Assembly (NCBI GenBank): GCA_905178155.1
Contig: CAJINV010000001.1
Coordinates: 1,166,606-1,230,605 of the forward strand
Direction: 5' to 3'
Length of the DNA: 64,000 nt
Origin: Amoebophrya sp. A120
Lineage: Eukaryota; Protista; Dinoflagellata
In this document: positions 2,850 to 64,000 of the stretch, piece by piece
How positions within the stretch are numbered: position 1 is the stretch's first letter
Layout of the letters: the number at the start of each line of letters is the position of its first letter
Position numbers and translations under genes: made by a program
The notes under the pieces: generated by a model
Databases searched by the model: none
Told to the model about the DNA's origin: nothing
What the model saw: only the letters and a program-made list of their open reading frames with translations

Positions 2850-5800
2850 ATGATGCGCCAGCGAGGAATCGGGGCGGGCAACGCGACGACCGGCGAAGTA
2901 GAGCACGTAAGGCTCCCACACGTGACGAAGCGCAATGCGGTCCTTTCTCGTTTCCCGGTGAAAAAGGTCGTAACTACATTATGCTTTGGCATTGCGGCAT
3001 GTCGTGCCAGTAGCGTGTGGCAGCCGGCGGGGCTCGCGCCGACCGCTACCCAGGGATTGTTACGAACCGTGAGCTCCGCAAGGTTTTTCGGGGCATTTCC
3101 CAAAAGTACTAGAGCGCGAAGTAGAGCAGCAGAACCTTCTTCACGACCGGCCGGCAACGTGTCGGTCGCATCTGGTTTGGAAAGAGGAAGCACCGGAGCA
3201 GCGCGCGGCTCTACTTCCGCTGCGGAGAGCTTCCGAAATTTTGCGCACGAGGGAAGATTCCAGAACGAAGAGGACGCTGACACTGTCGCGTATCAACACA
3301 AAGAAGATCACATCCCTCCTCCGATGCCTCCTGCAGAAGTGCAGCACACGGCCGCATGGCCGACTGACGCCGGCGGGCTCGCCAAACCTAGTGGACCACC
3401 TGGAGGTGGAGGACACCTCCAGGGGACGCCGTCCTCGCGCAACATAATATTGAACGGTGTCGGAGCAAAGAAAAACACACAGGTGCCGCGCGAGCGTGTC
3501 TGCGAGCGGCAATGGTTTTTGCAGGCAGAGAACGAGGAATGGTCGCCCATCCACGTGTACGCTGCCTTGGGCAGTACACAGGTGCTGCTGGTCCTGTTGG
3601 AGCAGCTTGGATTTTCGCGCGACTGGTTATCGGCCGATGAGGAACTACGAGACCACCTCCACATAAAAGCGACCCTTCCTGCTGGTGACCACGACGAGGC
3701 AAGAACATCATTTTGGTCCTCGCGTAGAAAAGCAGAAACGGCGAAAATTGACGTAAACCTGCCGCAGCGCCTAGTCGACGCCGTCAACGCGCCCACGCGG
3801 TTTGGGGGCCGTCCGACGCCGCTTGTGCTCGCGGCGGAGCAGGGACACGCCGCGGTGGTGCGGCTTCTCCTCGCGGCCGGCGCCGACCCCGGACTCACCG
3901 TGTGGGCCGCGGTGGAGCGGGCGCGCGAATCGGACAATAAATCTTCCGCATATTCGCTTCTGCGAAACCTGCACGCAACCTGGCGGGGGAGCGGGGCGGA
4001 AAAGGAAGCTCCTGGGCGGGCCTCGTTTGCAGAGGAGGACGTGAGAAGGACACAGCCGTCATGCGTTATCTCTTCAAGTCGCACCTTCAGCGCGACCGAC
4101 GGGGCGGCTGGGGGAGGGCAGGCTGCCGCTTCAAGGGACTACTACACCGGGCCTACTTTCGCGAAGCCAGACTTTTGTAGCGCAGGTCCTGCCGCAGGAC
4201 CTCCGACTAGAAGTCATCATCTTCGGCCGCTTTACAAGACGAGTGCTAGAAGAAGTAGAGGGAAGCAGCAGGCCACAAGAACTCCCTCCAGGATGGTGCC
4301 ACAAAATTCGTCTTCCGCACAACTAAAGATCAGTGGAGATGGAAAGGAAATCCATGCAAAAGCCGTTCCTGGCGCCGAACCAGACGACGGTGCTAAGCCA
4401 CTCTTCAAAACTGCTGGTGTATCAATATCCGCACCGGTTGGAGGGACAACTCCGGAGCACCAGGTGGGGTCGCCCGCAACCACGGCCTCGACGTGCTTCC
4501 CCTCGCCCATCGGCTATGCATTGCAAAAGTATCGTACTCGTATAAACGCATTGCAAATTTCCTCAGCATGAGAAATAAAATTTGTCATGCGGCTTTACCT
4601 TACGAAAATTTTTTTTTTTTTGTAATGCATGACTGCAATCACTACGAGTGCGATACTTTTGCACAGGATATCGGCGGGTCGCCGGCAACTAGTCCGTCTA
4701 CCGCGTTGCCTTCGCCCTGTTGCTCCCCCTCAACGGTTGCGCGCGGAACACCCGGTGCAGCAGCAGTAGATCTTCACGAAGGCCTGGACGCGTTGCACCT
4801 GCCGGCGGCCGCAAACGACTTTTCCGACGACGCTCCGTTCTCGTTCTCCCAAGGCGAGGGTAATATCGAAGATGATCCGTCAAATAATACCGACGTCACC
4901 TTCGGGTTGCGCCTGTCTTCGGAGCCACCGCACGTGTTTCTCCCCTCGCACCACCGGCGCGCCGCCCAGGAGCGAGCGGCCGCTCTGGCCGCGGCGACGA
5001 GGCACGAGGGGAAGAACCCAGCACCAGCACGGGCCGCGACGGCGCAGAGTGTGTTTGAGTCTTGTGCAGGGACCTCCTACGATTCGGCCGACAGTGGGGC
5101 TTCTGGAAGCTGTAGAATAAGCACCAGTGCAGCCGCAGCAGTCCTCCCCGACGTCTTGCCGACTACATCATGTGCGCAGCCTCCATGCCGCGACGTAGTC
5201 ACCAGTGCCAGCGGCCTCGCGACCTCCGTGCAAAAGAAATCCGACGAGGATCGGGGTAGTACAACTTGTAAGACCCATCAGGAACCACAACAACAAACTC
5301 CTAGCGGCGGGGATCATGATCTTCCTGCGGGATTGATGTCCCTGCGTCTGAGCGAGGACTCCTGCTCTCAAGAAGGCTGTGAGGTGCACGTGGATTGGGT
5401 AAGCGAGGCGGAGTACTACTGCGGCCCGTGGCGGAATGTGGTCGTTGTGGATGAGAAAAGAAACGAGTCGGTGCTGGAGGTGGGCGGCTGCATTGAGGAC
5501 ATGGTGGAGGTTTTTACTCCTCCGCCAGGCCCAAGACCTGCACAGTCGACAGCAAATCTCAAATCCGCAAAGAACTACACGCAGTCTATAACAACCGCGG
5601 ATCATGTCGGGTGCGACAACCACGTGCCTAACCGGTGGTTTCGACGCCAGACCTTGTGCCCTGTTCCGCGCGTCACGCCGCTCTATGTGGCGGTCGAGGG
5701 CGGCCACTTGGAGGTCGTAAAAGTGCTCCTTGACGCGCATGTAAAACATAAGAACGAACAAGCAGAGAGGCAAGAAGACACTGGAGATATGATCATGTTG

Positions 5801-6238
5801 GAAAATCAAGACGACTGGGAGGAGGAGAGCTTTCTGGAGGTTACTGATTCATTCGGGCGCACTGCGCTGTACCGTGCCGCGGAACAGAATTCCGCGGAGC
5901 TGGTGCGACTGCTGATAGCCGCCGGTGCGGACCCGGACCACCCGAACCACGAGCTCCAGAGCGCACTGGAGGTTGCGGGAGAGGCCGGCAACGTGGAGGT
6001 GGTGCGCTTGCTGGTGCACGAGGGGGAGACGTTTCAGTGCACGCTCGAGTTCGCGGACCAGTCCCTCCACCTGTTCTCGCAGACAGAACACAAGTTTCGC
6101 GTGCTTGTGAGTGAGCAGCCCGCGGACGCCGAGCTGCTGGATGCCACAATCGATTTCTGTTACGTGTGCCAGAAAGAGATGCCCGAGTGCGCGCGCTTCC
6201 TGCAGGAGGAACGCTGGCCGTTAGTAGATGTGCTCTAG
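2850..6238 (+). CDS. Ankyrin-repeat protein with long low-complexity linkers; one introner
   Basis: Ankyrin motifs SPIHVYAALG, TPLVLAAEQGHAAVVRLLLAAGAD, TPLYVAVEGGHLEVVKVLL, GRTALYRAAEQN; ORFs 2766-4571 and 4493-6238 join in frame after removing 161 nt (element + one DR copy). Confidence 0.85.
4515..4670. mobile_element. Introner, family D (TIR TATGCATTGCAAAAGTATCGTACTCGTA)
   Basis: TAT...ATA; DR TCGGC/TCGGC; restores SPIG-GSPA. Confidence 0.9.
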
Positions 6239-7426: not shown

Positions 7427-9663
7427 ATGGCTGCTGCCCTTGCGGGCGCCCTTGATTACGGCCGCTTAACTCCACCGCCGGGCTGTCGCGTGGTGCTGGC
7501 GTTGTGCGTGGCGTTTTTTATCCTGCCCACTGGAGAAATCCTGGCCTGCTCACCCGCAAATGTTTTCGACCGGTGGTGGCTCTGGACCCTTTGCACCACC
7601 ACCTACGTGCACCACGTACGATAGTGTTTTTTTGTCTGGAGGAGGTTATTGTAGAGCTAGACAGAAACGAGCCATCTCACCTTGTGTGAACATGGTTTGT
7701 TGGGGAATGGGCATTGATAGTGATCATGCTCAATCCATAAACAGAGTTACACCAATCGTCTTGCACATGCGTTACTTTATCTAGTTTGATTTTTGAAAAT
7801 CCAATCCCCCCACAGGAGTTGTTTTCGCTGGCGGGGGGCTTGCTGCTTGGCTGGCGGCGGTTTGTGCGCGCGGAAAACGAGCATGGGACTGTCGGGTTTC
7901 TGCTCTGGCTCCTCTTCGTCTCCGCCGTAATCCACGTCGTGTACGTGATTGCCTGCCACTTGGTGTTCGAGTATTTCGACCCACGACTTGCCGGGGAACC
8001 CGTGCTATGTATTGCAAAAGTATCGTTATCGTAGTACTGGCAGAAATTTTTGTCGCAATACAATTTGATGAGACCAGGAGGAAAATTACAAGTGCAATTT
8101 GTAATGCTGCTTCAGCAAAAAAAGAAGATTTGTCGCGCAGATTGCAACTAGTGCGAGTAGGAATACGATACTTGTTTTGCAATGCATACGTGCACGGGTT
8201 GTGGCCGCTCGTGTGTCTGCTCTTCACCTACGATGCGAAGCTTGACCCGTTCGGCGAGGTATCATGTATGAAATTTTTGCGCACCAGGCAGCTACATCTT
8301 CAAAAGTTGCACCACGTGTAGCATATTTCTTCAAGAACTTCTTTGCTCTGATGAAGCAAAGGCGGGCCGCACAGTGCAACGACTGCGCCAGCTGGGAGGT
8401 AGGGAGATATGTCGATGCTGTGTAGTACTATCATCTGTGCAGGAACTTATTCATCTCGGCAACAAGAAATGCCAGTGCCAGCGATCGAAACGACAACGCT
8501 TCATACCTCAGGTCCTGCTCTGGCCGCTCCCTCTCACGGTGTACACGCGCACAGTGCCGCTACTGGCGTTGTTTGGTGCGTGGCTGGTGCACTTCGACGC
8601 CCACCTGGATTCCATCGTGGCCATGTTGGTGGCGCTGGCGCTTCCGTTCGAACTGCAGCTGTCGGACGCCGCGCACGATGCCATTGAAGCGGTTCTGGAG
8701 CGCCACGAAAGTGTCCGCGCGGTGCAGTACCTGAAGGGTATGGAGGGGTTTTGCACCCGCAACGCGGGCTTCAAGGCGCTCGGCACCAGCGGCGCCCCCG
8801 TATCCAGTGCAAATATGTCTGGGTGGTCTAGAAGGTTGATGCAACTTGTGATGCTGTGTTTGGATTCTAAAAAAATCTGTACTGCATGACCAGCAAGAGG
8901 TGCGCAGTTTGTGCTACGCGCAGAGGGCATTTCTGATGCGGAATAGGCAACAGGAAGCCGTCTAAAAGGCTGTCATGCTAGGTCATGCATTACAGGCATC
9001 ATGGCTCGTGCGAAATATGCATGATAAACCTGGAAATCTTCCAGACCCAGACATATTTGCAATGCATATCCCGCCACCCAGGCCAACGAGTTTGACTTTG
9101 CCGGCAGCGGCGAACTGGATTTGGAAGCCGGCGCGGGTTTCGACGTGAGTAACGTGCTTGCGGGGGCGGGGAGCAGCAGCAGTAGTAGCTCTAGCACCGG
9201 GGGTCATCTTTTCGGGAACCCAGCCACGCTGTCCTCACCTGGGAAAAGCGCGAGCGGCGTAGTTGCTTCTACGGCCGGAGGAGGTCCTGCTCTAGTAGCG
9301 GGAGCAAGACCAGACGCAGTTGGCGGCAGCATGCTTTATCCCCAGCAAATAGGAGCCGCCTCATCTTCCGGTATTGCAGCTACCAGTTCTACTGCTGCGC
9401 TTTACGCAGTAGACCCGCGGCAGCAGGCGCCAGTCGCCGCGCCGCTCCCGCCGCCGCCCGGGGGCTTCGCGAGCGCGGACTTTCTCGAGAGCGACAGCAC
9501 GACGGCACAGGTGCTGAATACCGACTTTCTCGCTCCCGGGCCAGCGGCGCCGCCACCGAACGTGGACCCATTCCTCGCACAGCACCCAGTGTTCGACGAG
9601 AACATAAACACAAAGGACATATTCGGTGACCTAAGCACCACGGACGATCCGTTTGAATTGTGA
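7427..9663 (+). CDS. Rhomboid-like / TMEM115-type multi-pass membrane protein with low-complexity acidic tail
   Basis: Several hydrophobic segments, WWLWTLCTTTYVH motif; GT-AG introns 7616-7815 and 8259-8511 plus two introners; ends DDPFEL*. Confidence 0.6.
8006..8188. mobile_element. Introner, family D
   Basis: TATGTATTGCAAAAGTATCGT...TTTTGCAATGCATA; DR CGTGC/CGTGC; restores GEPV-HGLW. Confidence 0.85.
8801..9068. mobile_element. Introner, family A (TIR TAT-N4-TGCAAATATGTCTGGGTCTGGAA)
   Basis: DR CCCCG/TCCCG; frame restored (GAP-ATQ). Confidence 0.85.
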
Positions 9664-10156
9664 AGATGATGAAGCTGTGCTGTTGTTGTGGTACTGACTG
9701 TGGCGCTGGAACAACAGACCGCAGTCAAGCGCAGCGTTGCTATTCGAAGAATGGAAGTTGACCAGAACACGCACGTATCGCGAATGAAAAAAAAAAGATA
9801 GACCACAAATCAACTCATGACTCACTAGCCACTGCAGTTTGCTGCAGTTGAGCCATCTGCCCGTGTTTAGGCGTTTTGCGTCTCGGGCCGCACTGAGCTA
9901 CTTACACAAAGCAGGGCATAATTTTTTTGTGCCACCGCTGTTCGAGGAAGACTTTTGACCTGGCTCTCGTTCACCTCTATTTCTCTTTCGTTCAACGTGC
10001 CGTCGGTTCTGTGGTCTGGTTTGGTCCTTTCGCTTCTTCTTTTGGGCGACGACATGAATGCGCAATTCCGCTTCATAATTTTGATACTTTTTGCATCACT
10101 TTTCCAACGTTGCAGTCTCGAGTCACAGGCAACCGGCTACACGACCCGCAAACGCG

Positions 10157-12838
10157 ATGGCGCCGCCCGTTCCCCGCCGCTCCCACAGGACGCGCAAGAA
10201 GGGAGCTCTCGTTTGGCTCTCTGCGGCTTGGACTGCTTCGGTGAACCACCAGACGAGCTCTACTGGCGTCGTCGATGCGGCGAAAGTGGGTGCGGGGACA
10301 ATAAAAGCCGGTTCGCAACACCGGCTTTTCTTCGAGGCGTCCACCAATGCCAAGGTGCAGTCCTGGTCCACCCTCGGGGTGATTCACAAAACCGAGTACT
10401 GGGGCACGATCAACGTGGGCACGCCCCCCCAGGAGTTTCAGGTCATTTTCGACACGGGCAGCGGGAACCTGATCCTGCCGGGCTCCAAGTGCGACTCCGC
10501 CCCCTGCGTCCAGCACAAGCGCTACGAACCCAGCCAGTCCAGCTCGGGCGTCGCCGTCGGCAAGGACGGTGTGTCGCTCGCCACCGACCCGTCGCAGTAT
10601 CGAAAGGAGGAAAAATTTAGGTTTACACACGAGATTTACTACTTAGAGCTACAACTGTCAGCACACTGTCGAGACATCGTTCTTTTATGAAAAAGATGCA
10701 GTGGACCGCGCCGTGTACTTGCTCCTGCTCGGGTGGAAGTACTTACGCAGCAAGGGTGGAGCCACGTAGCGATGTAGATATTTAGAAAAGTAGTGCGAGC
10801 AGTGGCCAAAGAACGCACTCTCTGTTGAGACGATCGTATCTATCAATCACAAGCCTCGTTTATTGATGACCGAATCTCGGAACTTCTCTATGATTTCTCC
10901 TCTGCATATTGCAACTGCGGAGTCCACGATTCGGTTTGGAACTGGGGAAATTCATGGGTCTTTCGTCAAGGACCAGATCTGTTTGGGTACATATAGACGT
11001 CGATTTCATATTTCATTTTCAACAGATAAGATATCACGCACGAAGTACTTGATCACGTCGCGCGAGTCTAATTTAGTATGCAGGTTGTGGTGCGAAAGGA
11101 AAAGTAGATATCGAACCATACTTTTTTCAGGTTCGTCCTCCAACGTTTGCACGACTTCAAGCTTCATTTCAACGACCAGCGAAACGGACGAACCCTTCAC
11201 CCAGTGCAGCTTCGACGGCATTATGGGGCTGGGGTTCGCGGACCTCAGCATGGGTGACAGTTTCAACATGATGGATGATTTTGTGCACTCCCGGACGCTG
11301 CCGCGCAACCAGTTCTCCGTCTATTTGTCCGACACCAGCGGGAGGTCGGAAATCTCCTTCGGTGGCTACAAGCCGGAGCAGATGCTGGGCAGCGAAATGT
11401 TCTGGGTGCCCGTCACGCACCAGAGCTACTGGGAAGTTGCCAGTACGGAAATAAAGCCGACTGCTGTTGTTCGGAAGGAGTTTGTATACTTCTAAGGGGC
11501 TACTTCATATGATGCTGACGAAGGACGACGAAAATCTGTACTTGCAAGTGACAAGAATCGATCAGTGGGTACTTCTATATCAAAACTGCTGGAGCAGATA
11601 CAGAAAATGCATGTGGTCCAGGCCTCTATATAGAATCTTGTACCCGAGCGGCTGCAAGTTTTTGTTTTTCCTCCTCCACACTTGTTGACGACATCGCCTT
11701 CAACAATGAGCCGAAGAACCTGTGCGAAAATTGCAAAGTGGCGGTGGACACGGGGACTAGCATGCTGGCGGGGCCGAGCGACGTGATTGCGAGCTTGACG
11801 GAGAAGCTTGGCCTGAAGTCGGACTGCAGCATATTGCAAGGAAAAATCCCCGCTCCCCATACTGAAAAGGTATGTTTCTAAAAATTTGTGATGCTGATTT
11901 GTGGCCACAAATCCTGTCTCTCTTGCAAGAGGGCAAACTCATAGAGACCCCGGCACGATATGCAGGCGATTTGTCATGCTGCAATGCCTAGAGGGCTGAC
12001 GTCTGTCATGCTGGGCCCCTACACCAAAAGGCCCCCCCTTAGGCTTACGATCTGCGCGCAGTGCTTTACTGCAAGACAAATGTGATTTGTGTACTTAAAT
12101 ACAGCAACACATATTTCGTTTTCGTGCTTAAATACAGCGACGCCGGACAATGGCAATGTCGGCGCGGTTGTTTTAGCAACACATATTTCGTTTTCGATAT
12201 GGGGAGGGGGGATTTTTCCTCTCAATACAGCAACCTGAGTGACATGCCCCTGCTGGGCTTCCAGATCGGGGACCGCGTGCTCAACCTCAAGCCCGAAGAC
12301 TACATATCACACGACAAAGTGTTAACGTTGACGGAATTTGTGACGCAATAACGCATCACAAAACGTGCCCAGATTTGTCATGCATAGCATGGACGCTAGG
12401 CAAAATTTGTCATGTATATTTTCAATATATGAAAACCGTTAACGTTAGCACTTTTTGGCTTCATACTACATCGACCAGGGTGACGCGAGCTGCGAGCTTT
12501 CCCTGATGGAGCTCGACGTCCCCCCGCCGAAGGGACCGATTTTTGTGTTCGGCGACCCCTTTTTGCGCCGGTTTCTCACCGTCTACGACAAGGACGGGCC
12601 GCGCGTCGGCTTCGCCGTGGCGCGGCAGGAAGGCGAAAGCTACGCGGACGGGGCCGATCTGATGGGCCGGGTGCGCGGGTGCGCGGGGCCAAGTGGAGCG
12701 GAAAGAATCGTAGCGCCCCGCGGGGAGGTGGAAGTGTTGTTGCAGGAGGAAAATCTGCTGAAGAGGAAGTCCGCGGGCGCCTCGAGCTTGATCTCTGTCT
12801 CGCTGCAGCGCACAAAGCGGAGCAAAAAGGGGCAGTAA
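10157..12838 (+). CDS. Pepsin-family (A1) aspartic protease
   Basis: [35 protein letters not shown], second catalytic VAVDTGTS, C-terminal [17 protein letters not shown]. Confidence 0.95.
10598..10908. mobile_element. Degenerate introner (C-like ends, 311 bp)
   Basis: TATCGAAAGGAGGAAA...TTTCTCCTCTGCATA; DR decayed (CGCAG/TTGCA) but removing element+5 nt restores frame. Confidence 0.55.
11832..12227. mobile_element. Introner, family C (TIR TAT-N4-AGGAAAAATCCCCCCTCCCCATA), with internal duplication
   Basis: DR CAGCA/CAGCA; restores SDCS-NLSD. Confidence 0.9.
12305..12465. mobile_element. Introner, singleton family (AAAGTGTTAACGTT inverted repeat)
   Basis: DR CTACA/CTACA; restores EDYI-DQG. 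Confidence 0.85.
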
Positions 12839-13908: not shown

Positions 13909-16900
13909 ATGCCCGAGCAGAACGACTTCAGCGGGCTGAAGCGGTCCGCCGCCGCGGCGGACAACGTGACCACAGAAGCGTCGGGCAGCGCGGCGGCCGC
14001 GGATGCGAAGAAGCGGCGGCTGAGCGCGGCCGCGTCTCCAGGCCTTGTTCCCGAGCCCCCGCGATTCTACCACGGAAAGGGGAGCCGGCAGGCGAAGGTA
14101 ACGGACGAAAAAACGGGGAAGCAGAACCTGGTCAAGACCGAGGGGCAGATCGCCGCGTTGCTGCAGGGCGACCGGCTCGTGCTAACGGGGTGGTTTGGAA
14201 ACGAACAGGGGCTGCCGGAAAAACGGTTCGCGGTGCATGCGAGGAAGGACCCGGCTTGTGTGAATGAGTACAAGGTCGAAGACATGGGCGATCTCACGAG
14301 CTTTTTCGAACAGAGAGCCGGTGCAGAACCGCGCCGTTTCAAGATCGTCGAGAAACACGGCCTGCAGATAAATGGCAAGGGTACGCTGCCGGCGCCGCTC
14401 GGGGACGTGCAGTTTCGGCTGCAGGCCCGGTTGAAGACGACGAAGCACGATCCAAATGCGAGTGCCCGCCGTGAGTACGCCGCGCGGGGCGAGCGGTTGC
14501 GGGCGTTCGTGAGCAAGGAAATATTGACGGCTGGCGACAGGAGCGCGGCGACCGGGAAAGCGGCGCGCGCCTTGCTGAACGTCGCGAATCAGGTGCGCAC
14601 GATCTTACCGAGGGAGAGCTCGGCTTCGGGGATGGTCCCGCATACAGCCACATTCCCGGCGCAAGCAGGGGCTGTGCCGACCACGAACAGCAGCAGCAGC
14701 TCCTCGTCTTCATCGAGTTCGTCTAGTAACAGCGCAAACCACGCCGCAGGAGGAGTACTTCGAGCGGCACAGCCCAAGAGCAGCAGTTGTGTCGCCCCAC
14801 CTGCAACTCCACTTCTACCCGAACAAGCCGTAGAGGCAGAGCGACGGATTTGCGTCATCGGAGCGACGGGAACAGGCAAGTCGAGTTTAGTCAACGCACT
14901 CCTGTGCGAGCAGCTAGCAGTGAGCGCCGGCACAGGCGCGGCCGTGACATCCGTGCCTACCGAGTTTTTCTACAAGGCACGCAACGCGAACAAGGCACTC
15001 AACCAGCGGGAGTTCAACGGCGGGCGTGACGTGCTCGGCGCACTAATTTACGAGCGGGGCGCCCTGCCGGTAGACGAGCGCCCGGCACCTTGCTTCGAGG
15101 TGAGCCTGAAGTTCTTAGATTTCCGGCAGACTGCGGCACTCGTGGAGAACGCGATCGACGAGCTTTTTGAGTGGAACGTGACCAAAACGGAGAAAGACCG
15201 CGAACACATGCCGGTGATGCGTCTGCTTTTTGGGCCGAGATTTAAGGACCAGTGCGAGTGGGCACGGAACGTCGACGAAAGCAGCAGAGACGATGCCGTA
15301 GAACGGCGACGACGGGCTCTGCAAGACTTGGCGAAACAGGAATTGATGAGGTGCGTAGCGGAAACACGCGCTCAACAGCGGCGTGAGGAGCAGCAGCGGA
15401 TGCAGTTGCAGGGACGCAGCGGCGTCCTCCCACCCCCACCATCCAATTTTGGACCTCTTGCTACAGTACTGCAACTTGCCAAGAGCCCGCCACCAGCTGC
15501 AGCATCCCTCATCGGCACGGTGCTCACCAGCAGTGTCTACTGCCTCGACACGCTGCGGCGTCTGCAGGACAAGTACTGGCGCATTTTGGAGAATGTTGCC
15601 ATCGGGGGGGAGTTTCCGCTGCTGGACCTGCCGGGCTGCAAGCTCCGGCTTGTGGACGTCCCAGGGTTCGGAGACGAGAACGGGCTACGCGAGCGGATTG
15701 CGGAGAAATACCTTCACAAAGCGGACAAGATCATCATCTGCGCCGGGTCGGCGCGCGCGGGGAGCGACAGGCAAACGAAGGAATATCTCCAGAAGGTACT
15801 TTTGTAAAGGCAAAGCTGTATTCTGAGAGGCCGTTTTCTTCCTTGTGAACGGCGAAGATAGCCTGCCAGTGCTCTATAGATGAGGGGCTAGGTGTCGTGT
15901 TTGCGCTGGCGCTCGAAGCCGATCGGGTCATTTGTTTATACGTTTTTCATGATTCTGTGATCAAAGTTTCACTGTGCATGTGCAAGACATTGGCACAGAA
16001 GGATTCGATGATGATTTGCGCCATTTTCGCAGCGTCGATTTATGTTTTGCTCCAAGTCCAAATCCACTTACCATTAAAACAACCACCAGGACGCCGTGCA
16101 GCACCTGCAGATGAAGAACGTGGGGCGCAGCACGACGATTTTCGTGGCCACCAAGAGCGACCAGGTTCCCGAGAACGAGCTTCAGGAGTTGGACGACCTT
16201 GAGGACGACGTGAGCCTCCTGCGGGGCCTTTACCGCGACAGCGTTGCGAAGAACGTGCGCCGCATATCAAAAGGAAAAATCCCCCCTCCCCATATCAAAA
16301 CGGAAATCTGTGATGCAGATTTGTTGTCACAAATCAGCTTTGTCATGCTACACGGGAAAAGATGCGGACTGTAGTGCTGGGTGGCGTGGGGAAGCCTTGC
16401 ATCTTCAGCATGATAGGAGGCATCTGAGAGTGGGAAACAGCATGATAAATTGCCTGTAAACGAGGCCACGGCTGCGGCTCTTGGCCTTCTAGCATGACAA
16501 GTCGATTTGTGACCTCAAATACAGCATCACAAATTTCGTTTTCGATATGGGGAGGGGGGATTTTTCCTTTCGATACCGCATGCTGACGGACTTCAAATAC
16601 GGAACGGACATTATCAAATGTAAAAATGTCTGGGTCTGGAAGAATGCAACTTGTAATGCGTATTTCAGAACACAGAAAAGTCTCTCATGCATACGTAGCA
16701 AAAGCTCCCACTTTTTGTCAGCGAAATAGGGGACTTGTCATGCGGATTCGGCATTGCGGAAGGTTCTCGAAACCTGTGATGCTAGAGCTTCCATGCCAGA
16801 CCTTCTGTGTCATGCAAAAACAGCATGACTCTTCCAGACCCAGACATTTTTACAATCCATAGACATCCCCGTCCACGTGATAAGTTCCGAAAAGTACGCC

Positions 16901-43108: not shown

Positions 43109-43488
43109 ATTCTGGAGTAAAATTTTTCGAGTTTTTTGCTGGTTTTGTTATCGTATGTTGGTTCCCTCATCAACGCAGAGCCTTTTTCAACCAAACCGCA
43201 GCGAATCCCTGACTGTATTTTCCTATTCTCTTTATTTCCTTTTCGATTTTTTCCCCTCCCACAAAAAACAAAAAGATACCCTTTCAACCCTTTTTTCAAT
43301 TTGTTTCACGACAAAAAAGAACCTTGACTCGTCGAATGATATCTGAGCCCCTTTAAGATTCCTCTCAAGGAACCGCACAGCAAAATATCAGAACCGCAAA
43401 TGGGCATCGATGCTCCAGACAACTGGAACTTGATTTAGACACCGCGAGACCGACAAGCGAAATTCGACGACCTGCAAACAAGAGCAGA

Positions 43489-46400: not shown

Positions 46401-46676
46401 ATAAGTTACGGCCAAGGCGGCCACGAGGTGCTCACCAACGAGCGGCGCCGGTTCGACGAGCCGCAGCGTGGGCGGGAGCGGTCCCCGCGGCGAAACGACG
46501 ACCGGGGCGGGCCATACAGCCGGGGCGGCGGCCAACAGTCCTATGGCAACGACGATAGGTCCTACCAAGACCGAGATCGAAGCGACCGCGGCTACAACAA
46601 CGACCGGAGTGGCGGGAATCGCCGCGGTAGGGACGACTATGATGACGACTACGACCGAAAACGCAGGAGACGGTGA
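43489..46676 (+). CDS. NCBP3 (DUF2414)-like RNA-binding protein with RG/RD-rich tail
   Basis: IILAGLD...IWALF...IHWISD and VEVRRALPTDVK resemble the NCBP3 RRM-like domain; SR-like C terminus RGRERSPRR; several GT-AG introns and two introners. Confidence 0.55.
45723..46029. mobile_element. Introner, singleton family with long (~55 bp) TIR
   Basis: TATGGATGTGTCAGAGTTGAAATCGACAAAGTTGAAATAATTTGTCATGCATAAAA mirrored at the right end; DR AACAG/AACAG. Confidence 0.9.
46118..46403. mobile_element. Introner, family B
   Basis: DR AGTTG/AGTTA. Confidence 0.9.
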
Positions 46677-52121: not shown

Positions 52122-55100
52122 ATGGGTTGCTGCCTTGCCGTCGCGGAGGTGGCGGAGGACGTCCGCCAAACGGTGTACGAAATTGCGGATGCCTTGGGGG
52201 TATCGAATGCAACAAATATGTCTGGGTCGGGGAGATTGCGAGATTTGTCGTGCTAGTCTGGCATGACTCTGCGCTCTGTATTGCGTGGCCGCAAAGAGCT
52301 CCGCTGGCCTGTCATGCAAAGACGCAGCTTCTCATGCGGAGTACGCAACTCAGAACCTCCACGGCAAACAAACTTGCCATGCTTGGCAGCGCATTGCAGT
52401 GTTTTCATTATTCCCTTTCTTGCATCACAAGTTTCCAGACCCCGACATATTTGCATTTGATAGGGGGACGCTATGGACGGAATGTGGAACGATATCTTCG
52501 TGGATGACGTGCCGAAGGAGGTCAACGAGACCACCAAAGAAGCGGACGGTATCCTGAGTAAAAACGTACCCACACCAGAGTTGTAATGCAGATTTGCAAA
52601 GACAGGAAGACTTGCAATGCGCATCCCCATGAGAGCCATTTCCAATCGTGTTTTGGAATTTGTGATGCTGTGAACAGGATGGGCAGATGAATCTGTGATG
52701 CGGCTGCACTTGCTAACCTGCACTACACTGCATAGTGCAACTTGTCATGCGTGGCTTACAAAACTCCTAGGCTTGTGTTCCAAAATCCTCATCCTGACTC
52801 TGGTGTGGGTACGTTTTTACTCAGGATAGACGGCTGGACGAAAATCCTGGGCGTCTACCTCGCCGGCTACCCCCTTTCGTGCGGGAAGAAGCAGTTTTCG
52901 TCGCTGGACGAAGCGAAGGCCGCCGCCCTGGAGTTGGAAGACTGCGGTGGGGTCACGCAGGTTGGTCGTGTAGTGTAGTCCGTTGGAATTAAGTAGAGCA
53001 AAACTGGGGTTAGGGTTGTACTCATATTTTGTATGTATCACGTGAGCGGGATTCATGTTCATCAGCGTCTTTTTGTCTGCTGATAAAGATGAAAATCTGA
53101 ACTGTTTTCTCCAAAGGTTGCGGAGGATGTTTTCGAGCTACGTGCGACGGGCCGGGTGATGCAGTCTCCCTCCAACGAAACCACGTGGCGCAAGCCCTAC
53201 ATGCTGGCGAGCGGGGACGGCGACAGCAGCGGCGAGAAGAGTCCGCGGACCGGCGGTCCATATCAAATGTAAAAATGTCTGGGTCTGGAAGAATGCAACT
53301 TGTCATGCTAAATCTGAAGCATGCAAAAATCTGTGTTGCATGATTACCAAAAGTCGCCCAGTTTTGACCAAGTCGGAAGGGAGTTTCTCATGCAGGAGAG
53401 GCATGAGAGAGATCGCGCAGAATCTGTCATGCTAGGTCCTGCATTCCAGGCCTCATGGGTCATGGAAAAGCTGCATAACAAATCGCGCACTCTTCCAGAC
53501 CCAGACATTTTTGCATTTGATACTCCGGGGGCGGTGACGAACGAGGACGAAATCAAGGTCGACGACGATGAGGAGGTGAAACAGCGGAAGCGCGACGAGC
53601 TGGCGGCCAAGCTGGCGGCGGCGAAACAAGCGGCGGAGGAGGCGAAAAAGCGCGAGGCGGAACGGCTCGCGGAGAAGGCGCGGAAGCGCAAGGAGGAGCT
53701 GAAGCGGCTCGCGGAGTCGCAGGCGCCCGAGAAGCTGCAGGTGATGTGCGACTACGGGAACTGCACGGGGGTGTTCGAAAAGGTGGGGGACTTGAACGAG
53801 AAAGCGCAGTACAAGCTAACCGAGAAGGAAGCAAACGTCTTCGTCTGCTACGACGGCGAGCGGTGGATCATGACCTTCGAGGAAAGTCCGGAGCAGGGCA
53901 GCGAGTTCAACCGCATCGCGCTGTCGGGGAAGACCGCGGTCATCAACGTGACCGCCCTCAAGTCGTGGGGCAACAAGGGCGTGCGGTGCTACGACTACGA
54001 GCGCTACCACGCGCCCAACGAGCCGGAGGAGGGAAAATTCACCGACGAGGACTTTCCGCCGGCCCTCGGCAGTCTGGCGAACGACACGAAGTGGGGCAGC
54101 GACGTGCAGTGGATCCGGGCCTGCAACCTGCACCCGTGTGAACAGATGGAGTTGTTCGACACGATCCAGCCCACGGACGTGCGGCAGGGTGCGGTCGGGG
54201 ACTGCTGGTTGATGGCGGCCTTTGCGTCGCTGGCGGAATTCCCGGGCTACCTGGAGGAGGTCACCTTCAAAGGCTTGAATGCCCTCTCCGCGGAGAGCAA
54301 ATACGTGGTATCAAATGCTGCAAAAATGTCTGGGTCTGGAAGAATGCAGGGTTTGTCATGCACAGCTAGCATGGCTCTCAAGTCTGTCATGCGCGCCACA
54401 CAAAAGCCACATTTCTCTGTCATGCAGAAACGCAGTTTGTCATGCAGATAGGCAACACTCTAGCAGCTCCACAACTTGTCATGCTTGGCTGTCAATGAAG
54501 GCGTCCACATGTTGATTCGCCGAACAGCATCACAAGTTTCCAGACCCAGACATATTTGCATTTGATACGTGGTGAAACTGTACAATCCGTACGAGAAGGA
54601 GTGGGAGGACATTGTGATCGACGACTTCATATGCACTGCAAATACAACGTCCGGGTCTGGAATGTTCGAACTTGCAATGCTGGTCTTACATGACTGTAAA
54701 ATCTGTATTGCAGCATGACCAACAAAAGTCGCAGCCTCTTCATGCAAAATGAACTCAGCTTCTCATGCAGGCAGCGCATGAGAAAGCGTTTTGGACAAAA
54801 TTGTCATGCTTGGCTGCCTTCGGAAGTGTTTCCATCATGTGCATTTTAGCATCACAAGTTTCCAGACCACCCAGATCGACAATATTTGCATTTGATACTT
54901 CATCCCCGTGGACGGCAACAAGGACGCGCTGTTCTGCAAGCCCGTGGGCCACGAGGTGTACATGTGTCTGCTCGAAAAGGTATCCTATGTAAAAACGTCC
55001 CCACACCAGAGTCAAGATGGGAATTCTGCTAGACAAATGCACCAGCTTTGGTTGCTGCGCATGACAAGTTTGGCCTCGCAGTATAGTCCTGTTCAGAAAG

Positions 55101-56528
55101 CCCCAGTAGCATCACAGATCTAGCGTAGCATGCTGATTCAAGCATCACAAATTTCAAAACACGACGAGAAGGCTCTTCTCATAGGGCTCCGCATGAGAAA
55201 CATTTTCACCATGCAGATTTGCATGACAACTATGGGGTGGGGACGTTTTTGCATAGGATAAAAGGCGTTTGCCAAGCGGTGGGGCGGCTACTTCAAGATG
55301 AGCGGGGGGAACGCCAGCAACGGGTACGTGTCCTTGCTGGGGGGCAGTTGCATCAAGTACAAAAAGCGGGACGACTACGAGGAAACGGGGAAGTGGCGGT
55401 CCATCTATCTCACCTTCGATCCGGAGAGCGAGCGGACGTTCGAAGGGGACTGGTGGTGTAACAACGACGACTGCGACGTGACGGACGAGGGACTCTGGGC
55501 TTTGCTGCGGCAGTGGGACGAGGCTAACTACGTCTTCAACTGCTCCATGCCGAACTCGAAAAAGGGTGAGGTCGAGGCCGAGCGGACGGACGGGTAGATA
55601 TAAGTAGAATGACCTGATTGAGACGCGAGATGCTGAGGCTGACTCACTTATTCTGTATGCTGATCTAAAAATTTCCTTCTCGCTCCTCAAGGTTACATGT
55701 AGCAGCACCAAACTTTTCTTTCTAAAAGCGCTTTCGAAAGAAAAAAACCCACGTGATTATCACATATCAGGTTGATCGAGGGCCACGCGTATTCGTTCCT
55801 CGGTGCCTACGAAGTTCCAGAGCTAAACTTGAAGCTGGTGTGCCTGCGCAACCCGTGGGGCCGCTGCGAGTGGTATGGATTGCAAAAATGTCTGGGTCTG
55901 GAAACTTGTAATGCTGCGTTGGGAATAATGAATGCTCTGTGATGCACAGCCAAGTACGAGAAATATCTGCGCTTCTTTGTGTTCCGTTTTTCGCATGACA
56001 AACTGCGTTTTTGCATGACAGGCAAAAGGGTCTCTTCTTGGACACGCATCACAAACTTTTTGGTCATGCTCATGCCAGACAAGCATAACAAATCTCGCAA
56101 TCTTCCAGACCCAGACATTTCTGCATTTGATAAGTGGAACGGGGACTGGTCGGATGCTTCCCCCATCTGGGACTCCGTCGACAGCGCGCAGCTGGAACAG
56201 GCCGGCGTGCGGCGCGTGAAGGCCGAGGACGGTGCCTTTTTCATGACGTTCGAAGACTGGAAAAACTGCTACACCTATGATCCCGGCAAAGATAGCCTCT
56301 CTCTTGCGTAGTACTAGCCTGCGTTGCATGAGAAATAAAAATCGGCCTGCCCTTAGTTACAAACCGTTATAGCTTTTGCTTGTTAAGGGTAACATTTTCG
56401 CATGCACAAGAAGTATGCTACGCTAGAGAGGACTTTTGTCTCGCGATAACACCCGGGTGGGGGTCTGCCAGTTGTCTGTGTCGCATGGGAAACGATCCGC
56501 TGCTGAGGGATTCACCAAGCGCGGGTGA
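52122..56528 (+). CDS. Calpain-family (C2) cysteine protease with N-terminal MGCC acylation motif
   Basis: [22 protein letters not shown] (Cys), [17 protein letters not shown] (His), [16 protein letters not shown] (Asn), [10 protein letters not shown]; eight introners. Confidence 0.93.
52201..52462. mobile_element. Introner, family A
   Basis: DR GGGGG/GGGGG. Confidence 0.9.
52550..52828. mobile_element. Introner, family B; near-identical inverted copy of 50142-50420
   Basis: DR GACGG/GACGG. Confidence 0.95.
53261..53522. mobile_element. Introner, family A
   Basis: DR GTCCA/CTCCG. Confidence 0.9.
54309..54567. mobile_element. Introner, family A
   Basis: DR CGTGG/CGTGG. Confidence 0.92.
54630..54897. 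mobile_element. Introner, family A (diverged)
   Basis: DR CTTCA/CTTCA; restores IDDF-IP. Confidence 0.9.
54981..55260. mobile_element. Introner, family B
   Basis: DR AAAGG/AAAGG; restores LLEK-AFAK. Confidence 0.92.
55874..56132. mobile_element. Introner, family A
   Basis: DR AGTGG/AGTGG; restores CEW-NGDW. Confidence 0.92.
56276..56448. mobile_element. Introner, singleton family
   Basis: Imperfect TIR (CCTCTCT..GCGTAG / CTACGC.AGAGAGG); DR ACACC/ACACC. Confidence 0.8.
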
Positions 56529-57386: not shown

Positions 57387-59119
57387 ATGGCATCATCTGC
57401 CAGTACTGCTGCTGCTCTTCCGCCCACGACCTCCGACCAAAACGAAGGCGCTCCACCGGCAGCCGCGCCAGATTCATCTTCTGCTGTAGGAGGTGCGGGC
57501 ACGACTGAGGACAAGCCGAAAGCTATCCTGAGGAAAAACGTCCCCACCCCATAGTCAAGATGTGAAACTTGCTAGACAGATCAACAAGCCTTGGTTGTTG
57601 CGCATGACAAATTTGGGCGCGCAGTGCAGTCGTGTTTCACCACTGCAGCAGCATCACAGATCTTGCATATCGTGCTGATTCTTGCGTCACAAATCACAAA
57701 ACACCACTAGAGCGTGCTTCTCATGGGTCTCCGCATGAGAATCGCTTTGAGGATGCAGATTCGCATTACAGCTCTGGGGTGGGGACGTTTTTGCATAGGA
57801 TAACAGCCAAGGTTGTCGAGGTGGAAATCGCCACCACCAACCGGTTATGGATTGCAAATATGTGTGGGTCTGGAAAAATGCAAGGTTGTCATGCTAGGTC
57901 TGCGTGATACAAAAATCTGTATTGCGCGAACAGCAGAAGACGCTTACTTTGGGGCTCCTGAGCATGGCATTTCTCGTGCAGAATGGGCATTAGGAGCGGC
58001 TTCGTCAAAACTTGTGATGCTACAGTTCGCATTCCAGACCTTCTGGGCCATGCGAAACATGCATGACACATCCTGTATTCCTCCAGGCCCAGACATATTT
58101 GCATTTGATACCGATCCAGGTGCAAGTCCTGCGAGTGTCTGCAAGTGATTGAGAAGGGCACCGTGCGCGTGGGCGTGCCGATGTTTATGCAGGGCCGCAC
58201 GCTCACCGCCTGGTTCCATCCGCACTGCTTTTTCGACGGGCTTTCCGTGGAGGTGGTGCAGCGCAACGGGGCGGGGATGTGCAAGCACACCAGGAAAAAG
58301 TTCGAGAAGGGTGACTTCCGCGCAAAGGTCTGCTGTGGAAACGCGAAATTTGGGCTCAGTCTGCAGGTAGGATTACTGAAACCGCGGGTGGTGCTGGAAG
58401 ATTTTTTGTCTTGGTTTTCGAAAAGATAAAGAATAAGAATAAGAAAGTACACGGATGATCGTGCATTAGGTCGCTGTTGTTACTTTGTGGCACGAAGAAG
58501 AACATGCATCACAAGCTCAAGCATTCTAGAATTGATCGGATAAAATCAACATCTTCGCAGGCCGCCCGCGAGTTGTTCCAGCCGGTGTTGGAAAGCCTCA
58601 CGGAAAATATGAGAGAGCACATCAACTCCTCGTCCCCCTGATTTGTCATGCAAAATGCCGAATCCAGCTCTTGCCTTTAAGTACTCTGCGCATGACAAGT
58701 TTTGGACTCCCAAACATGACAACAATCCATGTCCGGATTTGTCATGCAAAAGCCACCGGGACGTCCAGCCCGTAGCTCTCCGATGTCATGCAAAGGCACC
58801 ATTTGTGGCATGGCTTCTGTTGCTGCTCATGCTTTAGGAAGGGGGGTTGTGCACTGTCATAGAAAACAAGAAGCGTTTCCGGGACATCGCCGGCGTAGAG
58901 ACGCTTCCTGCGGATTTGCAAGCGCAGTTTCTCGGCAGTGACGATGGAATTTTGGCGTCGAAGAAGAAAATAACCAGTGCCGCAGATGCGGAACAAATAA
59001 AAGGAGGGAAAACAAAGCCTGCTGCGAAAACGAAGAAGGCGGCAAAACCTCCAAAACAGGCTGCCGGCGGCAAGAAAATAAATGCACCTTTTGGAGAAGG
59101 GTCAAAGTCGAAAAAATGA
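57387..59119 (+). CDS. PARP-type zinc-finger protein with Lys-rich tail
   Basis: VEIATTNRSRCKSC...IEKGTVRVG...WFHPHCF followed by a second degenerate finger (MCKHTRKKFEKGDFR); three introners and one GT-AG intron. Confidence 0.8.
57524..57802. mobile_element. Introner, family B
   Basis: DR AAAGC/ACAGC. Confidence 0.9.
57846..58110. mobile_element. Introner, family A
   Basis: DR CCGGT/CCGAT; restores TNR-SRC. Confidence 0.9.
58608..58861. mobile_element. Introner, family G
   Basis: TATGAGAGAGCAC...GTGCACTGTCATA; DR GAAAA/GAAAA. Confidence 0.85.
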
Positions 59120-60462: not shown

Positions 60463-63400
60463 ATGAGAAGCGGAAGCAGTAGCGGATTACCCTTGCAGGC
60501 GGCGGCCCCCGGCGGCCCTCTCGGGACAACGACAACTCATCCGGGCGGGCGGAAATTATGCTTTTCGCGGTTTCTCGGCCGCACACTCACGATCCTGCTG
60601 ACCGCCGGAAATGCGGCAAACGACTTGGGTACTAGTACGAACATGGGTCTTCTACGCCCCGCCTTGGCGAAGGAACAACTGCAGGAGCCATCTTCGGGCG
60701 CGACCCCCCGCGGGAACAACTACAACCCGGCGGCCGCTCCACCGCGGACCCAGAAGGAACATCTTCAACAAGCGACTTTTCCGTTTCCCAAGCTGCCTCT
60801 GCCCGTGCTTTCCCAAACTGCGGTAGAGGACAGTGCGCTTCTCGCGGGTATTCGACGACATGAGGCGAAAATGCGCGAGTTGCTGCAGTACGGAAAAGTT
60901 GTGCACCCGGGCGGGGGGCAGACCAACCGGAAAGGACGCGGAATGGCCGCAATGGAGTCCCACGCGAGCCGGGAGAACGCAAATCACGACATGGCAGGAG
61001 CAAAGGAGATGAAGCGCCAGATGAAAACAAGAACGCTAAAGCACCACTGGAACAACAAGAACGCGACTGCTGTGGCAGACTCAGGGTCGCGGTCGCCGCG
61101 ACGCAGTTTGACCCACCACGACGACCTGAATCCGGACTATCCGGATATGAAATACGTGGAATTCCGCGGTGACCGGATTGACCGCAAAGACGAACGGCCA
61201 ACCAGTCTGTGCTTGTCGTTATTCGCCCCGGACCACGACCACTGCACCCGGAATCCGATCACCAACGGCCAGGCGCAAGTCACCCTCCCGCTGTTGCCGG
61301 CCGGGTGCAAAGACGACCCCGGGTGCAATAGTTGTGTCCAACTGATGATTGCCGGCGCAGTCTACTACGCGGGTGTGCACTGCGACACCCCGAACGCGTG
61401 TGCTACGGGACAAAGCGGCGTGTCGTGCCAACAGGCAGCCCATCTAGCCGTTTATTACTCAAACTACTACAAGGAGCTGCGCACCATAGGCCAGAACACG
61501 GGGCCAGAGTCCGTTTCTCCGCATTTTGTGACGGACACCCGCCACTGGCAACACTTTCTTCCGGTGGGTGTCTGTCGGGACAGTACGGGCGAGCTTCCGA
61601 AGCTGTCCGATGGGACAACTACGGCTGCGCTATGCAAGAAAAAAAGAACAAAAGCTGTGTAAGTAGTGTAGGTCTGCAATGCAAAATATGCAAAACAGTT
61701 TCAGTGACAGTTGTCATGCGGCTGGCCAGCCTTCGCGTCCTTTTTTCATACCTCGTGCTGTGTTCACAGTATACTAGCATGATTTCCTGCTGATGCGGAA
61801 CAAATTTGTCATGCTGTCAGCACACTAAAACACACCTACTCTCGTCACGCAGTTTTTTTCTTGGATATGGTTACGATGGCTCCTACCGGCGTTTTGAGGG
61901 CCGCAACACGGGGTCCTGCGGCGAGCCGGTGTCGGTTTTGCAACCTCCTTGCTCGTCCATTTACAGTTCGGGGTGCTCGGCGGCGCTAGACAGGACCTTC
62001 ACGTGGCCTGTTCACGGTGGGGATCAAAACCTGCAAGTCTCTCCGACCGGGGATCCATACGAAACCGCCGCACTCACCGCACAGCGGTACTGCGACGCCA
62101 ACCGGGGCACCTGCCAGGGATTCTATGTGTCGAAGATACCCCACCGCGGGTGGTGGGCTGCTTACGGACTTGGTGCGACTCACAGCTTTCGCTTCATTAG
62201 GCCGCTCAGTAGCACGGACAAAATTCAATCGAGCCCGGAGACCTACAAGCCGCAGGTCGGCATGTCGACCGTGTCTGCCGCGTCCTGCTCTACCGGCGGT
62301 GTGTATATCAGTGAGCACGGGGCTACTGTGGAATTTGACCTGTACGTGAGAGCGGTGGGTGCCTTGTCTTGCCCGGAGTGGGTTGAAGGCATCGAGAAGC
62401 TGGCGGGGGGCACGGACGAAAAACAGGGCTGCGTTATCCTAGGCAAAAACGTCCCCACCCCAAAATCAAGAGAAATCTGCTAGACAAATCAGCCAGCTTT
62501 GGTTGATGTCCTGCCTGACAATTTTGGCCTCGTAGCGTGTTCCTGTTTAGCTTCTTCAGCAGCATCACAGATCTAGCCTATCACCCTGATTGGAGCGCGA
62601 CAAATTGCGAATCACGGCTAGAAGCATATAAATCGAATGCTTGCTTATGCTTCTCATGGGGCTCCACACGAGAAATATTTTTAGCATGCGCCTCTGCGTT
62701 GCAGCTATAGGGTGGGGACGTTTTTGCATAGGATATGCGGACCTGCGTACCAGAACCGCGTGTGCAGCAACAAGGAGAATGGCTACTGCAACGAGGCGAC
62801 GGGGCGGTGCGAGGCGACGCCCCCCACTGCGGACGCGGTCGGCCGTGCGTTCGCGGGCACGTACACGCGAACCGAACTGTGGGACTTTTATTCCTACCCT
62901 GGCTGCACGGACACCTCTACGGGCTCGTTCACTCACGACGGTCAGGTGTTTGGGAACAAGTGGTTCACGGAGGCCTTTTACAACACGGGTCAGATGGTCC
63001 TGCAGACGGCCGAGGTCCTCAGTTGGGGGGTGTGCGACATCAACACGGACGATATCACAAGGAAAAGTCCCCCCTCTCCATATCAAAAGGAAGTTTCTGT
63101 TGCTGGACTTGCGGATACAAATCAGGTTTGTCTTGCAGTAGAGGACTGCAGGCTCCTGCCAAGCCTGAGTAGAGAGCTTTTGGCCTAGGCGCTTAGCATG
63201 AGAAACGACTATGCTGTAGGCCCAACAGCATCACAAACCGCCTGCATAATGCGGCAAAGCCTGTGGAGTTGTCTTCTTGCAAGACAGACGTGATTTGTGG
63301 TCTCAAAGCAGCAAGACAAATGTCCGGAAACATACTTTTTCGATATGGGGAGGGGGGATTTTTCCTCTCAATAGACGAGCGCGACGAAGTGGAGCGGCGG

Positions 63401-64000
63401 GTGGAGGTGCCCTTCGCGGCCGGCCTGCAGTCCATATGGATTGCAAATATGTCTGGGTCTGGAAGAGTACAAACTTGTGATGCGCATTTCAGAACACAGA
63501 AAAATCTCTGATGCATAGATAGCAAAAGCTGCCCACTTTCTGTCACCAAATGGGGCGACATTTGTCATGCGGATTCGGCATTGCGAACGCTTCTCGAAAC
63601 CTGTGTGATGCTAGAGCTTCCATGCCAAACCTTCTACGTCATGCAAAAACAGCATGAGTCCAGACCCAGACACTTTTACATTTGATAGTCCACCTGCGAG
63701 GGCGATTTCCCGGCGTGCTCCAACACCTGTCCCACCGCCTTCAATGGGGTCTGCGAGGATGGAGGCGCGGACGCGGAAGTTGCGGCGAACGCAGCCTTTG
63801 TCGGCGTGGACCCGCCCCGGTCAAAGGGCGGGAACCAGGTCGGCGCGGTATTACAATGAAAAATGCCCCCTCCCCATATCAAAACGGAAATCTGTGATGC
63901 AGATTTGGGGTCACAAATCAGCTTTGTGATGCTAGAAGGCAAAAGATGCGGACTGTAGTGCTGTCTAGCGTGGGAAAGCCTTGCAGCTCCAGGATGACAG
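60463..64000 (+). CDS. Large Cys-rich, probably secreted or surface protein; runs off the window
   Basis: Long GC3-rich exons joined in frame across five introners; hydrophobic TLTILLTA segment; many Cys clusters (YCDANRGTCQGF, VCSNKENGYCNEATGRCE, CSNTCPTAFNGVCEDGG). Confidence 0.65.
61631..61867. mobile_element. Introner, singleton family, DR decayed
   Basis: TATGCAAGAAAAAAA...TTTTTTTCTTGGATA; DR TGCGC/TGGTT; element+5 nt restores frame. Confidence 0.75.
62435..62735. mobile_element. Introner, family B
   Basis: DR TGCGT/TGCGG. Confidence 0.9.
63053..63373. mobile_element. Introner, family C (opposite orientation to 35048-35358)
   Basis: DR GACGA/GACGA. Confidence 0.92.
63435..63687. mobile_element. 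Introner, family A
   Basis: DR GTCCA/GTCCA. Confidence 0.92.
63849..64000. mobile_element. Introner, family C body with E-type left end; truncated by window edge
   Basis: TATTACAATGAAAAATGCCCCCTCCCCATATC followed by a body like 16265-16575. Confidence 0.85.

Follow-up and report, generated by a model that had tools for sequence, protein, structure and literature searches.

Introners of Amoebophrya sp. A120 as likely short DNA transposons, with a probable single register for their removal from RNA

The dinoflagellate Amoebophrya sp. A120 carries 29,850 repeated introns, the introners, whose inverted repeats start with TAT and whose direct repeats measure 3–5 nt. The published account describes A120 intron borders as variable and unknown, with the repeats 1–5 nt from the splice sites, and reports that no transposase was found (Farhat et al., 2021; PMC7789003). 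A later survey lists 58 A120 introner families; most of the 21 of 58 rows considered here are terminal inverted repeat (TIR) DNA elements of ~150–320 bp, and family 38 has inverted repeats and integrase-like open reading frames (ORFs) (Gozashti et al., 2025; PMC12130899). A 2024 review still treats the mechanism of such introns as open (PMC11282704), and a 2025 genome paper describes them as restricted to part of the genus (PMC12005148). Here, we analyzed 64,000 nucleotides of A120 contig CAJINV010000001.1 (positions 1,166,606 to 1,230,605; the window), whose coding exons are interrupted by TAT...ATA elements. Judged by sequence, the phenomenon is the known, published system, and the elements belong to the A120 introners: three window proteins (gene models P0001, P0002 and P0047) are 100% identical to A120 models. 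The link to Farhat et al. drawn in an earlier, sequence-only reading of this DNA is thus closer than it was put, the introners being those of the same genome.

The window elements share with the published introners the TAT start, the A run, inverted and direct repeats, a size of ~240–260 nt and non-GT-AG ends, and in neither case was a transposase found; TAT with an A run ~7 nt further on, a border repeat, removal from RNA and non-GT-AG ends were each looked for in the window elements and found. They differ in that repeats of 3–5 nt and variable borders are published, whereas we observed a strictly 5-bp duplication, an empty site and one register. The automated calls of Gozashti et al. give duplications of 2–5 bp or none and mixed splice-site models, with no fixed register among the 21 of 58 rows. 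The elements are published; a fixed 1+4 register, part of which may appear in figures S20–S23 of Farhat et al., was not found stated in the literature searched.

An unbiased scan for any 5-bp direct repeat enclosing an inverted repeat returned 68 pairs in the window, 34 of them of the TAT...ATA form, but three block-shuffled copies gave 29 pairs in total and none of that form. With relaxed scans and family BLAST, 49 complete TA[TC]...ATA elements with TIRs were found (144–396 bp, median 262; GC 0.45), plus one clipped by the window end; elements occupy 20.6% of the window. The sequence-only reading had counted ~52 elements, against 50 here, and two degenerate non-canonical introns (11443–11684 and 22041–22394) may account for the difference. 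Its 35 perfect 5-bp repeats became 34/49, and no element had a 6-, 7- or 8-bp repeat. The TAT or TAC start and ATA end that it proposed are present (48 TAT, one TAC, 49/49 ATA), and so is the lack of GT-AG ends, GT-AG being obtainable by sliding inside the repeat in only 1/49 elements. An AAA run marks the left end in 43/49 and TTT the right end in 45/49. By BLAST, family A has 21 members and family C 8, as counted before, but family B reaches 8 only with the clipped copy (7 without it) and D is a pair, not three; the remainder are singletons or pairs (two-member families 4515/35939 and 17459/58608). Family C copies 50142 and 52550 are 97% identical in opposite orientation. A subterminal motif common to all families, GCAT[GCT]ACA or its complement, occurs 148 times inside elements vs. 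7 outside. Rfam models gave no match at gathering score across the 64 kb, that is, no self-splicing or other Rfam RNA.

Four sequencing runs were compared over window positions 7400–27200. In DNA run X5, contigs pass from the flanks into elements at a depth of 38–48 (eight pieces listed); the summed depth inside elements, thousands to hundreds of thousands, is not readable as copy number. Run X1 is presumably RNA, as it skips the GT-AG intron 18193–18413 and its depth differs 100-fold between genes. Its pieces start or stop at element borders (9070, 10596, 12465 and 17694), and at element 25160 depth was zero at four listed places inside and 43 on either flank. Elements in both orientations were removed (8801 vs. 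25160 in X1, and 11832 vs. 63053 in gene models). For runs X8 and X9, matches were limited to fragments of elements and included none of the window's exons; at 16612–16861 and 24608–24659 they show RNA of a different genotype that bears the same species label, with family-A-like ends at 90–95% identity.

Element sites fall within coding-like sequence in 48/50 cases, such sequence making up ~71% of the spliced window. When the frames to the left and right were called independently, with a codon model trained on the same window, removal of the element plus 2 mod 3 was required in 43 of the 44 callable cases (5/49 elements were uncallable, and 40296 was discordant), which agrees with the earlier claim that deleting the element plus 5 nt restores the frame. 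Pfam searches of single exons support the four hosts named at that time (calpain, PF00648; GST, N and C domains; GT15, PF01793; and, for the pepsin, aspartyl protease, PF00026), and further hosts with Pfam support are ankyrin, dynamin-like GTPase, PA/VSR and PARP-finger genes. The X5 joint 24560-T-24839, which carries linked substitutions, comes from a second, slightly divergent GST copy (24426–26496), one variant of which is seen in X1. This copy is without the 24566 element and has the 5-bp target only once, an empty site that fixes the insertion as element plus 5 bp.

These data make it almost certain that the elements are transposon-derived and are removed from RNA together with 5 nt. Both halves of the claim had been made from sequence; X5 DNA retains the elements and X1 RNA contigs are without them, and the 5-bp duplication, the empty site, the inverted repeats and the multi-copy families speak for a transposon origin. 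Excision from DNA in the transcribing stage, in the manner of internal eliminated sequences, or decay of the genes to pseudogenes, is very unlikely. Rare empty DNA forms could hide in X5, whose joint table is swamped by other copies and whose DNA may stem from any life stage; however, in X5 the elements connect with the flank on either side at the depth of a single copy, the linked substitutions at its sole empty site mark another gene copy, X1 contains element sequence besides spliced forms, and the proteins are intact and conserved across the junctions in relatives.

A perfect repeat leaves the junction unplaceable for any aligner, and this accounts for the spread of borders in print. The register was readable only at mismatched repeats, in 6/15, three from X1 contigs and three from gene models. 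At 10598, X1 stops at 10596 and P0002 permits only 10596 joined to 10913 or 10597 to 10914, so that repeat base 4 is the last taken from the left copy and base 5 the first from the right. From X1, base 1 at 8801 and base 2 at 17459 derive from the left copy. In P0001, the residues AAYDG at 61631 assign base 3 to the left copy and base 5 to the right one, and GCGP at 62435 likewise assigns base 5 to the right; in P0047, RLNAL at 21395 assigns base 4 to the left. A single register, with the intron as N + TAT...ATA + NNNN, fits 6/6 cases; with junctions placed at random, the remaining five would agree with the 10598 register with a probability of ~0.05. We consider it probable that the junction lies at this one fixed register.

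An improbable alternative is splicing of the elements at a junction that shifts about in the 5-bp repeat, the fixed register being a small-sample or annotation effect. The informative cases here are only six, and Farhat et al. describe splice sites whose position varies with respect to the hairpin, with repeats 1–5 nt away (PMC7789003), but all six cases fit one register, three of them from RNA contigs, and the published spread is explained by the perfect repeats. A fixed N + TAT register predicts border pairs that start with NT, and the nine top A120 non-canonical pairs in Table S4 of that paper all do (PMC7789003). For strain A25, the same source gives top pairs starting with TT and elements starting with TTA+RR, so that T at +2 and A at +3 would recur in both strains, if the register holds.

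An exact search of metagenome contigs for the family-A end returned at least 136 stretches, and 134 loci (L001–L134; 620 kb) were analyzed as a second assembly; no family-A end was found in viral contigs. The second assembly has no exons in common with the window, and families A, B, C, D and G and four window singletons are present at up to 98% identity. Among 423 elements picked by inverted repeat alone, 301 had a perfect 5-bp repeat, 59 had one mismatch and none had a 6-bp repeat. Tight subfamilies occur in both orientations (8:8, 7:7, 4:6 and 5:7). Element lengths peak at 149, 209, 252, 262, 279 and 321 bp.

The gene strand was callable for 243/360 second-assembly elements. G was found at repeat base 5 (position +1) in 67/200, vs. 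32% in coding DNA, and AG at repeat bases 3–4 (the 3′-end) in 18/200, vs. 12–19 at other positions. The GT donor and AG acceptor of U2 introns could be obtained, in any register, in 15/243 elements, compared with the 1/49 of the window. G at +1 and AG are near background, which indicates that the host sequence supplies no splice signal; no target-base bias was seen, and the earlier proposal that removal is independent of the target sequence is borne out. A look at the register by mutation direction in the second assembly showed no trend, with only 8–14 mismatches per position.

Our best explanation, which we hold as evenly poised, is that non-autonomous DNA transposons are removed by a relaxed spliceosome at one fixed register. 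Given a fixed register, spliceosomal removal is rather likely. A relaxed U2-type spliceosome is favored by the asymmetric exact cut, the recurring T+2/A+3 and the degenerate introns that start with GT (10597, 11443 and 22041, with ends GC, TG and CT, none AG). The canonical donors seen were two, both GTAC. In A120, 83/89 spliceosomal proteins and U2, U4, U5 and U6 are reported as found, and U1 as not detected (PMC7789003). We tentatively propose, with more doubt than belief, that a U1-less spliceosome reads the transposon end, with xTA serving as the 5′ site and the 3′ site measured off by a 4-nt ruler that starts at the paired terminus, 1+4 matching the 5-bp stagger. In RNA, (i) the terminal stem would pair and bring the element ends together; (ii) the TA of the element would provide +2/+3 of the 5′ splice site, G being dispensable; and (iii) the 3′ site would be placed by distance from the element end rather than by AG. 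Since the element ends are symmetric, removal would work in either orientation, and since the intron would consist of one host base, the element and four host bases, exactly one repeat copy of any sequence would be restored. As the 1+4 geometry equals the 5-bp stagger of the transposase, any exonic insertion, in either orientation, would restore the mRNA base for base.

Several points weigh against this explanation. The register could be read in only 6/15 mismatched repeats, the three junctions taken from gene models may carry a bias of the aligner or the predictor, and the RNA data on it are listed piece ends of one run's contigs, viewed without their partner pieces. The NT excess in Table S4 (PMC7789003) is also expected from aligners sliding towards GT. 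A T-n-A-C-like branch motif lies ≤90 nt from the 3′-end in only 25/49 elements, with no branch point evident, and the stem is predicted to cover +2 to +6. Nothing directly shows spliceosomal selection, because terminal TAT is conserved equally at the 5′- and 3′-ends, with no difference seen, and G at +1 is not enriched even in older copies (15/43). In the 134 loci (620 kb) no transposase or autonomous partner was found.

The same transposons, maybe with the same register, could also leave RNA without a spliceosome, if the terminal RNA stem were recognized, cut at set distances and the exons ligated. We regard this route, the main rival, as possible but unlikely. The stem measures ~30 bp or more and its predicted fold is strong (z −9.1 in the one element folded, 53261), both orientations are equally common, neither G nor AG is needed, and U1 is undetected in A120 (PMC7789003). 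Paired inverted repeats trigger RTCB-dependent excision in animals (PMC12779559), and euglenid introns with terminal repeats are reported to be released as circles (PMC11282704). However, SOS splicing is described as multi-site and as leaving indels (PMC12779559), whereas the frame was kept in 43/44 cases here; the degenerate element 10598, whose stem is weak, shows the identical register; and T at +2 in A120 and A25 looks spliceosomal.

Removal by a relaxed spliceosome, our preferred explanation, can be set beside other described systems. In SOS splicing a DNA transposon also leaves mRNA without GT-AG and its inverted repeats pair (PMC12779559), as they were predicted to in the one window element folded. 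In worms and human cells its excision is imprecise and uses many sites, but in A120 removal keeps the frame exactly in dozens of exons within 64 kb, a precision that refers to dominant forms, as contigs drop minor ones. Euglenid nonconventional introns and Fritillaria introns are likewise transposon-derived, with inverted repeats, junction duplications and non-canonical ends (PMC11282704; PMC13326754). In Fritillaria, AG-AC/AG-AT ends at TAC sites are favored and the U2 spliceosome is adapted, and tunicates show that a spliceosome can adapt (PMC13326754); in euglenids, Y|R junctions are favored and circles are released (PMC11282704). In contrast, the A120 elements show no base preference at either end save their own TA.

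The fixed 5-bp duplication, the empty site, the occurrence in either orientation and the presence of nearly identical copies (97%) suggest DDE cut-and-paste mobility. The elements are short, multi-copy and non-coding, with TIRs, a fixed-length duplication and an empty site, as in MITEs (miniature transposable elements with inverted repeats) or non-autonomous TIR DNA transposons. A putative DDE transposase would make a 5-bp staggered cut and bind the common subterminal motif, which is most simply read as its putative site. IS3EU/GingerRoot elements, to which the sequence-only reading pointed, have TA...TA termini, a 6-bp duplication and slight target preference, and IS481EU elements have TNT..AYA ends and duplications of ~4, 15 or 25 bp (PMC10045372; PMC6839031). 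The TA...TA termini (49/49) and the little target preference fit the IS3EU lead, but the 6-bp duplication does not (0/49 and 0/423), and GingerRoot inverted repeats measure 100–150 bp vs. ~30 bp here. Thus, with 5 bp here, no superfamily is assignable.

Longer family-A copies of the second assembly matched no Pfam family, and 37 ORFs (of 49 listed) were without a Pfam match. L067:476–2934 is a genuine family-A copy of 2.46 kb, flanked by a perfect 5-bp repeat; it contains a 415-aa ORF, for which no usable match was found in Pfam, PDB sequences or the ESM atlas and the single-sequence model was unusable (predicted local distance difference test, pLDDT, 39); the copy is possibly a captured fragment or a remnant of a parent element. 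Three autonomous candidates, L040 (6.2 kb), L048 (4.2 kb) and L038 (1.0 kb), were rejected as chance pairings of separate elements. The longer family-A elements L004:9473–10725 and L027:3862–4492 have ~240 bp of internal sequence in common at 70%, which hints at deletion derivatives of a longer parent. L042:6001–6972, a 972-bp family-A element with an insert of ~710 bp, an A-rich tail and ~19-bp repeats, resembles a retroposed insertion in an introner.

Gaps of ≤100 nt between elements numbered 16/49 vs. 5.4 expected, a figure matched by 0/5000 random draws, and in the second assembly gaps <100 nt were found in 91/253, with a peak at 40–70. This close spacing suggests that new insertions land beside existing copies. 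Spacing of 30–90 nt makes many tiny exons, the shortest being 31 nt after removal of one repeat copy (window plus L001–L134).

The features are collected in Table 1. The genes examined in the window all lie on the + strand, as a co-oriented cluster. The intron at 22041–22394 has an inverted repeat TTG...CAA of ~21 bp without a 5-bp repeat and is maybe an older element class; breaks in X5 contigs there suggest a multi-copy or palindromic interior. Its reading as a GT-AG intron (22050–22396) was rejected, as P0047 joins 22040 to 22395. The GT...TG intron at 11443–11684, in the aspartyl protease gene, is possibly a decayed introner.

Table 1. Elements and other non-canonical introns, by position in the window. 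Perfect repeats are given once and mismatched repeats as two copies parted by a slash; a dot marks an unassigned strand.
Feature	Position	Strand	Flanking repeat and remarks
Element, family D, ankyrin-repeat gene	4515..4670	.	TCGGC perfect
Element, D-like single	8006..8188	.	CGTGC perfect
Element, family A	8801..9068	.	CCCCG/TCCCG; RNA: repeat base 1 = left copy
Degenerate element, aspartyl protease gene	10598..10908	.	CGCAG/TTGCA; junction 10596 to 10913, between bases 4 and 5
Non-canonical intron GTAC...CTTG, lacking clear repeats	11443..11684	+	unique junction in gene model P0002
Element, family B	11832..12227	.	CAGCA perfect; spliced out in P0002
Element, single	12305..12465	.	CTACA perfect; RNA piece begins 12465; spliced out in P0002
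Element, family B	16265..16575	.	CCGCA perfect
Element, family A	16612..16861	.	GACAT perfect
Element, family G	17459..17691	.	CACAG/CGCAG; RNA: base 2 = left copy
Element, single	21395..21710	.	CTGAA/CTGCA; gene model P0047: base 4 = left copy
Non-canonical intron GTTG...ACCT, not TAT type	22041..22394	+	own inverted repeat TTG...CAA
Element, family A (TAC start), GST gene	24566..24837	.	CCCGA/CCCCA; empty site in second gene copy, DNA run X5
Element, family A, orientation opposite 8801	25160..25422	.	AACAG/GACAG; RNA depth none inside, 43 both flanks
Element, family B	25465..25775	.	CATTC/AATTC
Element, family C	26161..26446	.	CGGGT/CTGCT
Element, B-like single	26605..26918	.	TTTAG/CTTGG
Element, family A	30681..30942	.	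GGGCG perfect
Element, family A	31016..31266	.	ACTTG perfect
Element, family A	33433..33694	.	TGGAC perfect
Element, family A	33749..34000	.	ACTGT perfect
Element, family A	34122..34383	.	CCTTC perfect
Element, family B	35048..35358	.	CATTG perfect
Element, family A	35417..35677	.	CGGAC perfect
Element, family D, GT15 gene	35939..36082	.	TCCGT perfect
Element, family A	36133..36384	.	ACATC perfect
Element, family B	36498..36817	.	CGCTG perfect
Element, family C	36977..37255	.	CACCC perfect
Element, family B	37298..37620	.	TGCGC perfect
Element, single in window (9 relatives in second assembly)	40011..40229	.	TCCTT perfect
Element, family A	40296..40547	.	CCCCG perfect
Element, single in window (14 relatives in second assembly)	45723..46029	.	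AACAG perfect
Element, family C	46118..46403	.	AGTTG/AGTTA
Element, single in window (15 relatives in second assembly)	48402..48610	.	GCCCG perfect
Element, family A	48841..49101	.	ACCCT perfect
Element, family C	50142..50420	.	CCGGA perfect
Element, family A	50472..50723	.	TGCGT perfect
Element, family A	52201..52462	.	GGGGG perfect
Element, family C	52550..52828	.	GACGG perfect
Element, family A, calpain gene	53261..53522	.	GTCCA/CTCCG; long terminal stem, z −9.1
Element, family A	54309..54567	.	CGTGG perfect
Element, family A	54630..54897	.	CTTCA perfect
Element, family C	54981..55260	.	AAAGG perfect
Element, family A	55874..56132	.	AGTGG perfect
Element, family C	57524..57802	.	AAAGC/ACAGC
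Element, family A	57846..58110	.	CCGGT/CCGAT
Element, family G	58608..58861	.	GAAAA perfect
Element, single	61631..61867	.	TGCGC/TGGTT; gene model P0001: base 3 left, base 5 right
Element, family C	62435..62735	.	TGCGT/TGCGG; P0001: base 5 = right copy
Element, family B, orientation opposite 11832	63053..63373	.	GACGA perfect; spliced out in P0001
Element, family A	63435..63687	.	GTCCA perfect; spliced out in P0001
Family B element, clipped by window end	63849..64000	.	

If the fixed junction is true, the seeming chaos of border dinucleotides reduces to one rule, which would explain why exonic insertions in the tens of thousands do no harm and would provide a precise substrate for lariat, small nuclear RNA and reporter tests; if it is true genome-wide, the open splicing question becomes directly testable. 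The strict 5-bp duplication, the TA ends and the common motif narrow the hunt for the missing transposase. A fixed junction would also stand as an exact counterpart to SOS splicing, which in animals is imprecise. Under the U1-less proposal, the splicing code would be set by the parasite element, without a host G or AG.

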